From Eledone cirrhosa (Eukaryota), in assembly GCA_964016885.1 (NCBI GenBank), contig OZ024740.1:93682001-93746000 (forward strand): a stretch of DNA of 64,000 bases, given 5' to 3'. How positions within the stretch are numbered: position 1 is the stretch's first letter; each line of letters starts with the position of its first letter. The notes below the pieces were generated by a model. It was not told the DNA's origin, ran no database searches, and was given only the letters and a program-made list of their open reading frames with translations. Both the position numbers and the translations under genes were made by a program. Of this stretch, positions 23,710 to 52,582 are shown piece after piece.

Positions 23710-24004
23710 AAGAAAAAAAGATGAAATCGAAAATGCAACTGGAGTCTTATTTTTTTTAAAAATATATATATTTATTTGGTTCCTTTACCGGTTTCGCAGT
23801 TCTTCTGCTTTTCAAAAGTAGAGTTGAGATGGAGGGTCTGTGGTTTTTCTCACATCAGATGTGAGAAAAACCACAGACCCTCCATCTCAACTCTACTTTT
23901 GAAAAGCAGAAGAACTGCGAAACCGGTAAAGGAACCAAATAAATATATATATTTAAAAAAAAAATAAGACTCCAGTTGCATTTTTGATTTCATCTTTTTT
24001 TCTT
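23710..24004. repeat. Near-perfect ~295-bp palindrome (centre 23857) made of two head-to-head HHR-bearing units
   Basis: ...TTTTTCTCACATC-A-GATGTGAGAAAAA...; arms differ by only a few bases. Confidence 0.95.
23896..23931 (+). ncRNA. Minimal type I hammerhead ribozyme with U3:A8 core (mirror copy 23783-23818 on minus)
   Basis: CTT-TTGAAAA-GCAG aagaa CTGC-GAAA-CCGG-TA-AAG; stems I and II pair; palindromic ACCGGT at stem III. Confidence 0.75.
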
Positions 24005-24137
24005 TGTAGTTTCACTACTGTAGGACACCTCGGTCATTTTTCATTTTGTAAAAAAAAACCTCACTTTCTAATATATATATATATATATATATATATATAT
24101 ATATATATATATATATATATATATATATATATATATT

Positions 24138-24350
24138 CTAAAACCAAGGTACCCCGTACGGTCTGGAATGGAGTAGCGTTCCGGATGCGAGGGCATACCC
24201 GGCTGGAAGTAGAAAGTGCCGATTATGCCTACACGAGGCAATGGAGATAGTTAGACTGAAAGATGACGCGGTCAACCTGAAGTCTGAAATTATCATGACC
24301 TGCAGACACCAGAGAAGATGCACATTTGCAGCATGGAATCCTCCGGGTAG
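24138..24350 (+). mobile_element. PLE endonuclease C-terminus (Hydra-like), missed by the ORF track
   Basis: Manual translation NQGTPYGLEWSSVPDARAYPAGSRKCRLCLHEAMEIVRLKDDAVNLKSEIIMTCRHQRRC, same W..AY..CxLC..E..I..N..E..CxH pattern as 19202 and 43730. Confidence 0.75.
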
Positions 24351-47489: not shown

Positions 47490-49570
47490 TAAAAAATCTA
47501 CCATTCCTATCCTGGTCAGGAAGGCCCACCTCAGACTCCTAATACAGAGTGTCAACTCTTTCCTCCGAAGAATACGATGGAAGGCCTTCCACCTCAACTG
47601 AGCGGGTGCTGCTGACGCCGGAAGTACAGCAAACAGATAAGGATTTACCACCTGCAAGAACCCTCCACACAACATCCTGCTGGACCATTTTGAGAAAGAA
47701 CTATTTAACTTCGTCAGGAGCATTAAATTCAAAAACTATTATAGACACAACAATAATTTCCTCACAAAATTTGCAACAACTTAAAAAAAAATGTAAGGAT
47801 CGCCACCTCTTACATGTTATGTCTGACAAAACCAAAAGTCTATACACCATGACTCCTGAAACTTACAACTCTTTCCTTCTTAAGGAACTATAATAAAAAC
47901 TATTTAAAAAACTATACCCTCGAATGTAAACTTACTTAACCGAAAAGCCCACGTTCTGGTTAATGACTTGCATCTGAATAGTTTCACCCACCCTTATGTA
48001 CCTACAACCCCTAGCTTTTCTCTCAAGGATCCCAAGCTAAACTTTATTGAGGACCGATCTGTTAGACTTATAAGCCCAACTACATCTGACTTGGGTCGTA
48101 TCAGTATGAACATCCTCGATAGGATCATCCCTGGGCTATGAGATGATATCACCTACCAGCTGTGGTCTAACACCGGCCAAGTCATCAGATGGAACTCCGA
48201 TTGTTCTCCGATGGTCCTCCATGAGGTTCCTCCAATTTGACATTGACAGCTACTACGCTTCAATAACGCCGCACTGCTTAACAAAGCATTAACCCTAGCC
48301 AGCACTAACTCTGATATAACCAATAACGAGATTGACATCATACTTATGGCTAGGCACACCATCATTGAATTCAACTGTTGATTCTGGACTAGAAAGGACA
48401 GAACAGACAACTTCGACATAACTATGAACTCAAGCGACTCTGCGCAAATCACCGATTTAATTGGAATCTACCTATTACATAACATCAGAGCTGAAATCCA
48501 ACCCTTTCAAGGCTGAATATATAGGGACGACGCCCTATTTGTAGTCCACAATTGCACTAATCGAGGCATTGATTTGCTCAAAAAACAATTAGATAGATTC
48601 TTTAAAATTAACGGTCTCTCTTTCACCATCGAGCCGAACCATAAAGTAGTAAACTTCCTGGACGTTACCCTAGATCTTAACAATAGCTTATAATACCCTT
48701 ATCATAAACCAGGTGAAAACCGGATGTCATCTGAGCAGTCATCAAGTCTATCTCATATAGGATCTCCATGCTATTCGCGAATGAGGAGATATTTATAAAT
48801 CATGCGGCATATTATAATAAAGCTATTTCTGAATCTGGTTATGAACAGTCCATTTCCTACATACCTGAAGGCCATAACACAGCACTTCACCACAACCATA
48901 ATAAACTTAACACTGGAACAAGAAATACTTTAGCATATAGCCAGATTCGCCGGAATTTTAGCAGTAACAGCACCTATACAGGGAACATTAATGGTGGCAG
49001 CGGCCTACTTCCCACTCCAAGTAGCAGACACAAAATCAACCCTAGAATAGGGATGAGTAATGGGATGACAAATAACAAATGCCCAGGTAATAATGACCAT
49101 ATGAAGGCCCCTGCTAACTCTAATAAAACCCCTAGAAGGAATAGGCCTAGAAATTTCACCTGGCTTAACCCCATATTATCATCTAACTTAGCCACTAATA
49201 TCCTTAAACACTTCTTCTCTATCCTATCTAAACATCCCCCCTCCCAACCAAAGATATTACAAACTCTTTAATATAAACAACATTAAAATCTCATTATCCA
49301 CAACACCTAACCTAGCTAGCCACATCGCATATAGTAACCGTCATAAATTAAGACAGTATAACACCCACACCGCGGTACCACCACCCTCCTCAAATACACC
49401 ACGCCACTACACCAATACTTATTCTAGTAGCATACCTCCCCCATATAATCCTTCTAGCACACACCAGCCGCATAGTTTAAACAACCCTACTCTCACTAAC
49501 CGCAGCAGTAACTGCAACTGCCGTTACCCTAATACATGCCCACTAAATGGACAATGCCTTACACCCAATA
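47490..49570 (+). mobile_element. Hydra-like Penelope element ORF (N-terminus to linker; EN missing), pseudogenised
   Basis: STIPI...LRRIRWKAF; SDKTKSLY; FSLKDPKLNF...RLISP..DLGRIS..ILD; FLQFDIDSYY; FDITMNSSDSAQITDLIGIYLL; IYRDDA; VNFLDVTLDL; RNFTWLNP; KLFNINNIKIS; CNCRYPNTCPLNGQC; broken at a microsatellite. Confidence 0.88.
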
Positions 49571-49717
49571 TATATGTATGTAAATATGTATGTAAGTATC
49601 TCTCTCTCTCTCTCTCTCTCTCTCTCTCTCTCTCTCTCTCTCTCTCTCTCTCTCTCTCTCTCTCTCTCTCTCTCTGTATATATATATATATATATATATA
49701 TATATATATATATATAG

Positions 49718-52582
49718 TTAAAAGAATAGAGGTGTAACACACAAGTTATTATATATTGGTAAACGGAATAATAAAATGCTGACAAGTTGTTCACAGTTGA
49801 AAAATGGTTTAATTAGGAATAAAAGAGTATTAGTGATTGTATGGGTTAGTATTCAGTTGTGGTTTTAAGTTTTTAAGTTTTTACCGGTTGCGCATTTCTA
49901 AATGCTTTTCAAAAATAATTTTGAGATAGAGTGTCCGTGCTGTTTGCTCTGATCTGATTAGTTTTGGGAATTATACCTGTTTTTATGTTAAAAAAGTGGC
50001 TCCAGCGTTACTTTGGTGTTTGCAAAAATTCTTGTGGTCAAAACAATTTTGATTGGACAGTAGAAGTCATGTGAATGTAAAAAATTGATTTTGCGCCAAG
50101 ACTGTTTTTATGTTAAAAAAGTGGCTCCAGCGCTACTTGGTGTTTGCAAAAATTCTTGTGGTCAAAACAATTTTGATTGGTCGGTAGAGGTCATGTGAAT
50201 AAAAAATTGGTTTTGCGCCAAGATTGAGAAATGACTCTTTCACAACAAATATGTGTGTGTAGTAGTAGTAAGGTGTTCGATGTTGTGATAATGGTTAGCA
50301 GGGATGTGTGTCAAATGGCTATTAAGATAAGTTTGTGTGTGTGTGTGTGTGTGTGTGTGTGTGCGTGTGTGTGTGGGGGGGCGGGGGTATATAGCAGAGT
50401 AATTCGTGGTAGCAGGGATGGTCAGTATGAATGTGTATGAAAGCAATGGGGGGTAATTTAGCATGTCAAAATATATTTTTCAGCTTTTGTCTTATACGGA
50501 GAAGTGCGTGTGTGTGTGTGTGTGTATAAGTGTCTGTGTATGTTAATGTACGCGTGTGTATGTGTGTGTGTATATATGTGTGTGTGTGTGTGTGTGTCTG
50601 TGTGTTTGTGTGTGTGGGGGTGGACCAGTATTTTTCCCCCTGGTAAAATGGTGTACATTATTCGATTTTTTCAGTAAAGTTGTTTCTCTTAATAGAACAT
50701 CAAAAATCTTAACAATAAAAGGTGTGAAATGATATTCACTATACAGATATATACACATACATATATTCACTACATATATATATATATATACATATATATA
50801 TACATATATACATATATATATATACACATATATTTGTTTGTGTTGCACCATAGAGCATGTGTGTTTACGTATGTCATTGTGTTTATATGTGGGTAGAAAT
50901 GTGTGCTGATGTAGCTATGTATGTTGACGTGTGTATGTTGTGGATTCGTCTTAGGGAGAAGTGTTTAGACGGGGTCCGTATTTGTTAATGAAGTACACTT
51001 CTCCCTAAGACGAACCCACAACATACACACGTCAACATACATACCTACATCAACACACATTTCTACCCACATATAAACACAATGACATACGTAAACACAC
51101 ATGCTCTATGGTGCAACACAAACAAATATATGTGTATATATATATATATATATATGTATATATGTATATATATATGTATATATATATTTATATATATATA
51201 TATATATATATATATATATATATATGTGGTGAATATATGTATGTGTATATATATATATATAGTGAATATCATTTCACACCTTTTATTGTTAAGATTGTTG
51301 ATGTTCTATTAAGAGAACCGATTTCACTGAAAAGATCGAATAATGTACACCATTTTACCAGGGGGAAAAAAATAATGGTCCACCCACACACACACACCCA
51401 CACACACACACATATATATATATACACACATACACACGCGTACATTAACATACAAAGACACTTCAACACACACACACACACACACACACACGCATTTCTC
51501 CGTAGAAGACAAAAGCTGAAAAATATATTTTGACATGCTAAAATACCCCCCCCCCCCCATTGCTTTCAGATACATCCTTACTGACCATCCCTGCTACCAC
51601 GAATTACTCTGCTATATACACACACACACACACACACACACACACACACACACACACACACACACACACACACACACACACACTTATCTTAATAGCCATT
51701 TGACACACATCACTGCTAAACATTATCACATCGAACGCCTTACTACTACTACTACACACACACACACACACACACACACACACACACACACACACACACA
51801 CACACACACACACACACACACACACACACACACACACACGTATTTGTTGTGAAAGAGTCATTTCTCAATCTTGGCGCAAAACCAATTTTTTATTCACATG
51901 ACCTCTACCGACCAATCAAAATTGTTTTGACCACAAGAATTTTTGCAAACACCAAGTAGCGCTGGAGCCACTTTTTTTAACATAAAAACAGTCTTGGCGC
52001 AAAATCAATTTTTTACATTCCCATGACCTCTACCGACCAATCAAACTTGTTTTGACCACAAGAATTTGTGCAAACACCAAGTAGCGCTGGAGCCACTTTT
52101 TAACATAAAAACAGTCTTGGTGCAAAATCATTTTTTTACATTCACATGACCTCTACCGACCAATCAAAATTGTTTTGACCACAAGAATGTTTGCAAACAC
52201 CAAGTAGCGCTGGAGCCACTTTTTTAACATAAAAACAGTCTTGGCGCAAAATCAATTTTTTACATTCACATGACCTCTACCGACCAATCAAAATTGTTTT
52301 GACCACAAGAATTTTTGCAACACCAAAGTAACGCTGGAGCCACTTTTTTAACATAAAAACAGGTATAATTCCCAAAACTAATCAGATCAGAGCAAACAGC
52401 ACGGACACTCTATCTCAAAATTATTTTTGAAAAGCATTTAGAAATGCGCAAACGGTAAAAACTTAAAAACTTAAAACCACAACTGAATACTAACCCATAC
52501 AATCACTAATACTCTTTTATTCCTAATTAAACCATTTTTCAACTGTGAACAATTTGTCAGCATTTTCTATTCCGTTTACCAA
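49718..52582. mobile_element. Head-to-head inverted pair of Neptune-family 3' UTR/pseudo-LTRs (junction ~50995)
   Basis: Both arms homologous to 33620-34942; left arm minus, right arm plus; ~123-bp internal repeat x2 in left arm and x4 (51869-52360) in right arm. Confidence 0.92.

Follow-up and report, generated by a model that had tools for sequence, protein, structure and literature searches.

We analyzed a 64,000-nucleotide stretch of Eledone cirrhosa DNA, referred to here as the window (assembly GCA_964016885.1, contig OZ024740.1, positions 93,682,001 to 93,746,000), in which inverted sequence pairs adjoin (TA)n tracts. These pairs are insertions of Penelope-like elements (PLEs), which encode a reverse transcriptase (RT) and a GIY-YIG endonuclease, and of their non-coding derivatives. 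They lie head-to-head in (TA)n and likely arise by twin priming of one RNA. The key observation is that the two arms have staggered ends: one arm extends to the 3' end of the element and so carries a terminal tail, while the other stops at an inner site without it. Strand polarity, stagger, free truncation, non-overlapping arms and shared variants constitute the observed part of this explanation.

The stagger was scored in several families. For the family with an open reading frame (ORF), 40 copies were picked by ORF match, namely the first with the common top score, 20 per strand. An inverted arm adjoins the 5' joint at 28 of these loci; nine are simple insertions and three are unclear (L142, L147, L150). 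At L151, the pair scored belongs to a neighbor of the matched ORF copy. The 39-nt tail of this family is found on exactly one arm in 27 of the 28 inverted insertions, on both arms in none, and on neither in one (L144). Likewise, 30 loci of the family at window position 31022 comprised 15 inverted pairs, eight single insertions, five matches in one tandem array and two unresolved cases. All 15 pairs are one-tailed and all have different centers. Single insertions use either site (three without and five with the tail in the 31022 family; eight without and one with it in the ORF family), so independent choice would yield many pairs with no tail or with two. In the 28300 family, an inverted partner was present at six of ten tail-ended loci, and all six partners are tailless. 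The commonest short family gave 41 head-to-head events, none with two tails; on reading, its odd events are one or two that end at the same inner site and one chimera. One tail was found at 15 of 17 loci of the 23710 family. Two composites, window 45269-46168 and L154:5047-7074, have arms that cross TA into a neighbor, with the stagger at the outermost ends, as expected from read-through RNA.

TA-like letters follow in the element at both start sites. Some arms end at other TA-like words (L151:6223-6305, in a 3' untranslated region (UTR) tract; L120:1173-1314, within the tail; L166, near the hammerhead cut site), and the inner start site is therefore not always the usual one. A pile-up of tail arms at the inner site is partly an alignment edge and is not claimed.

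In the ORF family, both truncation points vary freely, with the tail arm longer in 17 cases and the no-tail arm longer in 10. The arms of the commonest short family have no overlap in 7 of 41 events and overlap by at most 7 nt in three more; L164 and L207 have similar non-overlapping or nearly non-overlapping arms. Within the window, an inverted tail alone (31680-31705) is attached to a copy that terminates before the tail. Such arms argue against fold-back, because a fold-back arm cannot contain sequence absent from the first arm. Among the 28 ORF joints, nine have 1-5 nt of overlap, five are blunt and 14 contain extra or unassigned letters, some of them due to private changes near the joint. 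An earlier reading made from the sequence alone (the sequence-only reading) had proposed 5'-to-5' joining. The joints are indeed direct and head-to-head, with junctions that differ between copies in overlap, bluntness and extra letters.

Sequence variants connect the two arms of a locus. Across 27 ORF loci, arms diverge by 0.38% within a locus versus 1.0% between loci. At sites polymorphic among these loci, the arms agree at 207 of 207 calls. They agree at all 41 minor-allele calls, which fall in 13 loci and, the sites being linked, amount to about 13 independent loci. When arm pairing was permuted 2000 times, agreement averaged 0.16, peaked at 0.67 and never reached the observed value. Private variants occur on one arm only in 49 cases and on both arms in 11; the former indicate that arms were not fully homogenized after insertion. 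Both arms thus derive from one template lineage.

Window pairs were checked by self-BLAST of the window and by direct inspection of the sequence. All ten inverted pairs reported by the sequence-only reading were recovered, with arms about 77-98% alike, and (TA)n lies at or near their outer ends as described. They are inverted but not symmetric: nine of the ten carry an extra tail on one side only, mostly outside the limits first drawn. The pair at 45460-46088 is likewise a palindrome but not a complete unit, being the interior of a larger palindrome (45373-46168) that spans TA tracts into another element. The main features are as follows.

23711..24070, no strand: non-coding PLE palindrome; left arm minus and tailless, right arm plus with a 66-nt tail on the right
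25470..25741, no strand: hammerhead palindrome; tail on the left, perfect core within the left arm
27145..27880, no strand: pseudo-long terminal repeat (pLTR) palindrome, kin of the ORF-bearing family; short left arm tailless, long right arm tailed
28300..30966, no strand: long palindrome; arms of about 1.2 kb, left end tailless, right-end tail of about 135 nt
31019..31244, no strand: hammerhead palindrome; 77-nt tail on the left
31367..31564, no strand: hammerhead palindrome; core 31386-31492, tail on the right, relative L025
31680..31705, minus strand: inverted arm consisting of tail alone; attached to the 5' end of the ORF copy at 31706..34942, no overlap with it
31706..34942, plus strand: broken, 5'-truncated RT/GIY-YIG PLE copy with 3' UTR and pLTR; ends at the inner (no-tail) site
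42874..43536, no strand: palindrome with internal partial tandem; 65-nt tail on the left
43710..45133, plus strand: GIY-YIG end of another PLE with 3' UTR; perfect hammerhead at 45032-45086 on the ORF strand
45269..46168, no strand: composite palindrome; inner part 45460-46088 tailed on both arms, outer ends staggered by about 107 nt
46370..46615, no strand: hammerhead palindrome; tail on the right
49717..52582, no strand: palindrome of 3' UTR and pLTR from the ORF-bearing family; left arm with the 39-nt tail, right arm tailless
14226..14319, no strand: inverted arm made of tail alone, attached to a tailless arm of a short family; lies beyond the 23710..52582 range

The left arm is minus and the right arm plus in all ten window pairs, as had been claimed, by several orienting criteria. 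The pairs at 27145, 49718 and 23710 were oriented through likeness to the pLTR of an ORF-bearing copy, and those at 25539 and 45460 by a perfect hammerhead core inside their own arm. Orientation of the 28300 pair comes from its likeness to the 45460 pair; that of the 31022, 42873 and 46370 pairs from likeness to copies with a perfect core; and that of the 31386 pair from its relative L025. The 42873 pair also gave a single weak inward hammerhead match with two mismatches. None of 360 shuffled control arms contained a hammerhead match, so the hammerhead orientation is not due to chance. The two orienting methods are tied together at 43710-45133, where a perfect hammerhead shares its strand with a GIY-YIG frame. 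Both arms of the 45269..46168 composite continue across TA into the antisense of a neighboring hammerhead element. L190 was considered as a source of the 45373 composite and rejected as a chance pair of neighbors.

Polarity was also scored in 100 evenly spaced 10-kb stretches of contigs C1-C15, representing 1.0 Mb of the 3.0-Gb genome. This sample contained 194 inverted pairs, or 170 once nested ones were removed. Of these, 149 are directly joined, 26 of them with a hammerhead in an arm, and all 26 face outward; the other 123 lack a hammerhead and were left unoriented. A further 21 pairs are separated by a TA tract, and the single one that was oriented faces inward. More tail-to-tail pairs across TA were identified by likeness to other copies. 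Tail-to-tail pairs are neighbors within one TA tract, so the head-to-head rule holds for direct joints. The strict polarity rule of the sequence-only reading stands in that form but does not apply across tracts; for example, window 4963-5106 is tail-to-tail over a TA/GA tract. Two other approaches were set aside. Orientation by propagation gave 30 head-to-head and no tail-to-tail direct pairs but mislabeled two TA-separated pairs, and a relaxed hammerhead finder was too weak, matching 22 of 300 shuffles.

In the same sample, 105 pairs have an outer end at TA. In 93 of them one end is at TA and the other is offset by a tail, with the tail on the left in 48 and on the right in 45. The 105 pairs occupy about 49 kb of the 1.0 Mb. 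Most copies are non-coding palindromes of 100-400 bp, with a density of about 100 per Mb. Extrapolated on the assumption that the sample is typical, this gives on the order of 300,000 palindrome copies genome-wide, a figure in which some counted pairs are DNA-transposon ends.

The ORF-bearing element shares features with known PLEs. The 32760-33449 frame is a member of an abundant young family with 26,156 candidate places. Nearly all of the 150 copies scored are open-frame, many at 784 aa, and homologues carry PF00078 (RT) and PF01541 (GIY-YIG). By alignment, the 784-aa frame at L118 combines RT with a C-terminal GIY-YIG in one ORF, with an RT core, a CxxC linker before GIY-YIG and a CCHH pattern as in Neptune/Nematis. 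A CX2-5CxxC linker and CCHH motif are Neptune/Nematis features (PMC8557442). Scanning seven window fragments directly against Pfam yielded no match of relevance. The tandem unit of the family is about 4.8 kb, and pLTR-forming partial tandems occur at L131 and L155, alongside the 28 inverted copies and the 39-nt tail. In the 4.8-kb unit at L131:3780-8604, the 784-aa RT frame is preceded by about 1.2 kb with additional open frames, of 236 and 226 aa, that differ in reading frame. Some copies have frames of 956-962 aa; this may reflect a second ORF, an intron or a frameshift.

The short palindromes are non-coding relatives of pLTRs of many families. Perfect cores of the predicted type I hammerhead occur in several families, and the core is degenerate in the young ORF family and the 23710 family. 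At window 4963-5300, 23857-23930 and 52380-52460, the second letter of the predicted hammerhead core is changed from T to A in many copies of several families. An Rfam scan of the window returned no hammerhead among the matches listed (150 of 213), only hairpin and simple-repeat noise. At window 47226-49570 there is a second, decayed PLE frame, whose inverted arm fuses part of the ORF interior to a pLTR of a short family; it may be the autonomous partner of that short family.

Palindrome centers were compared within the 23710 family. Its window member has a one-base center at 23857 and (TA)n on both flanks. About 37 of 40 scored places match the core, center included, at 99-100% identity, with a query that contained the center. 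Unbiased matches have other centers, and the cut in single insertions falls at almost the same point. We therefore rejected the idea that a fixed center reflects whole-unit copying, since the query held the center and unbiased samples show variable ones. The center letter is in phase with the tail at eight loci and out of phase at six, two duplicates having been dropped; this argues against a fixed unit, which would not vary in phase. At L082, a copy passes a center by 21 nt and then joins a tail-only arm, showing that templates can include a center. Palindromes, we infer, serve as templates for transcription and are restored at their own center.

The following mechanism is proposed. The GIY-YIG endonuclease of the element would cut both strands of (TA)n, and because this target is self-complementary, both ends could pair with UA-like words in the RNA. 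Both 3' ends of the break would then prime reverse transcription on one RNA, one starting at the 3' end of the element and the other at a TA-like site 30-140 nt inside. The polymerase begun at the 3' end may halt in the tail, giving a tail-only inversion, or displace the other cDNA and continue, giving a palindrome. Joining of the two cDNA ends would be blunt, use 1-5 nt of overlap or add extra letters. Where the RNA comes from an existing palindrome, it would carry the center; the cDNAs could anneal there and rebuild the palindrome with the tail on either side. The sequence-only reading had likewise supposed that both 3' ends prime and the products are then joined. Polarity, a longer arm on either side, non-overlap and variable joints support this, but the two ends are not equivalent, one using the 3' end and the other the inner TA-like site. 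Its view of a passive patch for microsatellite breaks is not supported, as the family carries its own GIY-YIG endonuclease and has many open-frame copies. More tentatively, one-RNA twin priming at two fixed sites could be the normal mode of PLE insertion, which would account for the (TA)n bias and the one-sided tail as well as the inverted pLTR. Here it may have spawned self-rebuilding, MITE-like (miniature inverted-repeat transposable element) palindromic retroelements, on the order of 300,000 copies making up a few percent of the DNA; these would regenerate their center each cycle and carry neighbors by read-through.

Several points weigh against twin priming of one RNA. The ORF loci were selected by ORF match, and the minor-allele calls are linked. 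Exceptions to the one-tail pattern are L144, with a tail on neither arm in a single haplotype; the older pair L040, with tails on both; and L205 and L154:8824, which come near to having none. Half of the ORF junctions (14 of 28) do not resolve to a clean overlap. Pairing with UA-like words is only inferred, because the start sites reported in PMC11167929 are not homologous to the cut DNA. The two arms differ in subfamily at L090 and L036 (short family) and at L205, and at the 5' end of L150 lies a different family; the chimeric pairs (L090, L036, L150) point to two RNAs in some events. Shared variants would also be expected from two sibling RNAs of one locus. Empty-site searches yielded none usable; L031 was rejected as an empty site, being two independent pieces of different subfamilies. 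The target flanks of the ORF family are (TA)n. No listed read record across 49718-52582 or 23857 spans a whole pair. 

Reduced-representation raw reads of two other individuals reach a depth of about 105-110 just left of the 23857 center; this is family-level evidence, and the reads appear to cross the center region. At 49718-52582, 12 of the 14 listed read joints pass from the left arm into the right, at a wide variety of points, which fits other head-to-head copies. The remaining joints are one strand change and one within an arm. The sequencing run that contributed most of the listed joints may be the assembly's own sample.

Taken together, one tail, either arm longer, non-overlap, variable junctions and shared variants argue for two primers and against simple fold-back and MITE copying. 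Dual priming on two RNAs in an asymmetric protein dimer, with one subunit per start site and usually sibling transcripts of one locus, would account for polarity, either-arm-longer pairs and non-overlap equally well, and it fits the chimeric pairs. A dimer is predicted for the anole protein (PMC11167929) and palindromic hammerhead stems could pair RNAs (PMC6765202). We nonetheless consider it unlikely, as the 41 of 41 minor alleles and the 11 both-arm private variants would require pairing at the level of the locus, even in non-coding families with many sources. Self-priming or fold-back, either on an antisense template (the model of PMC3846280) or by cDNA snap-back, with the endonuclease trimming the ends later, is distinctly improbable. 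It yields head-to-head joints and identical arms, and some centers do lie in short palindromes; yet one arm must be contained in the first, contrary to the 10 of 27 longer tailless arms and the non-overlapping tail-only arms, and one tail demands an extra trimming rule.

There is very little to recommend independent arms later homogenized by arm-to-arm gene conversion and inversion of the center. This could produce shared variants and the 8:6 center phase, but single-arm private variants outnumber two-arm ones by 49 to 11, likeness between the arms of older pairs is no more than 77-93%, and the one-tail rule is left unexplained. We give a slimmer chance still to short palindromes being MITEs moved whole by a DNA transposase, a version already largely refuted, or endonuclease-independent patches of TA breaks. 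All adjoin TA, and one family has a fixed center at about 37 scored loci, where the query held the center. Against this, ends are staggered, the tail side is independent of center phase, centers differ in unbiased samples, the arms are PLE pLTR kin with hammerheads, and ORF copies with intact endonuclease have the same anatomy. Assembly or amplification fold-back artefacts are the least probable of all. Although no long read spanning a window palindrome was seen among the listed records, arms differ by 0.4-20%, ends fall at fixed element positions, the same center recurs on many contigs, and raw reads of two other individuals cover the 23857 center region at family level.

In L1 elements, twin priming involves both target ends priming on element RNA, at the 3' end and inside it, to give head-to-head products. 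The pieces come from different, non-overlapping parts of the RNA, and inversion affects a minority of insertions; the process was reportedly described by Ostertag and Kazazian in 2001. In contrast, the second site here is fixed and near the 3' end, arms usually overlap, and inverted duplication is seen at 28 of 40 ORF loci. Only 7 of 41 short-family events have the non-overlapping segments typical of L1, most being inverted duplications. L1 twin priming is treated in bioRxiv 10.1101/2024.12.14.628481.

The architecture and polarity of these insertions are already known; the staggered-end rule is new. According to PMC3846280, head-to-head is the most frequently observed PLE arrangement, with palindromes at the joint, an optional tail on one inverted pLTR and a proposal of self-priming on an antisense template. 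PMC8557442 describes a 5'-truncated copy in inverted orientation, a frequent tail at one end and a preference for (TA)n. Endonuclease-positive PLEs of the Neptune/Nematis type (PMC8557442, PMC3846280, PMC2377424) resemble our elements in their RT with C-terminal GIY-YIG, CxxC linker and partial tandems, as well as in the inverted 5'-truncated copy, head-to-head joints, one-end tail, (TA)n bias and, by prediction, pLTR hammerheads. They differ in that the published tail is optional, with self-priming or endonuclease resolution proposed, whereas here the tail is on exactly one arm in about 95%. In addition, arms here can be non-overlapping, and most copies are non-coding palindromes of 100-400 bp at about 100 per Mb. 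Poseidon_Ac in vitro (PMC11167929) is alike in that its protein cuts both strands and extends them, and in that a pair of start sites delimits the tail, which fits the proposed mechanism. Its start sites are AC-rich rather than TA-like, and the available text describes no inverted product or one-tail coupling. Non-LTR retrozymes (bioRxiv 10.64898/2026.07.22.740005) are also non-coding and PLE-derived, with type I hammerheads such as are predicted here, but the copies here are mostly lone inverted pairs rather than tandem arrays. Tandem repeats of two or more hammerhead units are confined to arrays at L049, L053, L080 and L180-L184, and occur in none of the ten window pairs. The arrays at L180-L184 (C28 near 30.5 Mb) and L049 have retrozyme-like hammerhead units of 77 nt and 310 nt, and the L049 array is itself arranged head-to-head. 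MITEs have equal terminal inverted repeats and a fixed unit; here 93 of 105 TA-flanked pairs are offset at one end, and centers vary.

A search of the open literature found no paper that applies twin priming to PLEs or counts tails per pair; it brought up three L1 or telomerase papers, and in the one that was checked both terms occur in the references alone. Older PLE papers (2001, 2004, 2005, 2006) may hold such a model. PMC8557442 names the origin of tandem and inverted structures and the microsatellite bias as open PLE questions, and PMC11167929 leaves steps after first-strand synthesis unvalidated. Counts of tails, arm lengths, overlaps and variants separate insertion models and give predictions for the existing in vitro system. 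They also show how a retroelement can generate great numbers of short palindromes, which annotation of repeats would label MITEs.

Other repeats were noted in passing. A further decayed PLE-like RT frame lies at window 59652-61085 (plus strand). By eye, from the ORF list, window 55818-58901, 53210-54021 and 63434-63847 (all minus strand) are fragments of RTE-like long interspersed nuclear elements (LINEs). We take window 11040-11450 and 20101-21033 (both minus strand) to be, by eye, a Helitron-like helicase piece and pogo-like transposase pieces. L192 and L193 are paralogous loci with a 5S rRNA-like piece beside a hammerhead element. At L121:8627-9740, a 1.1-kb Helitron-like insertion lies within a pLTR.

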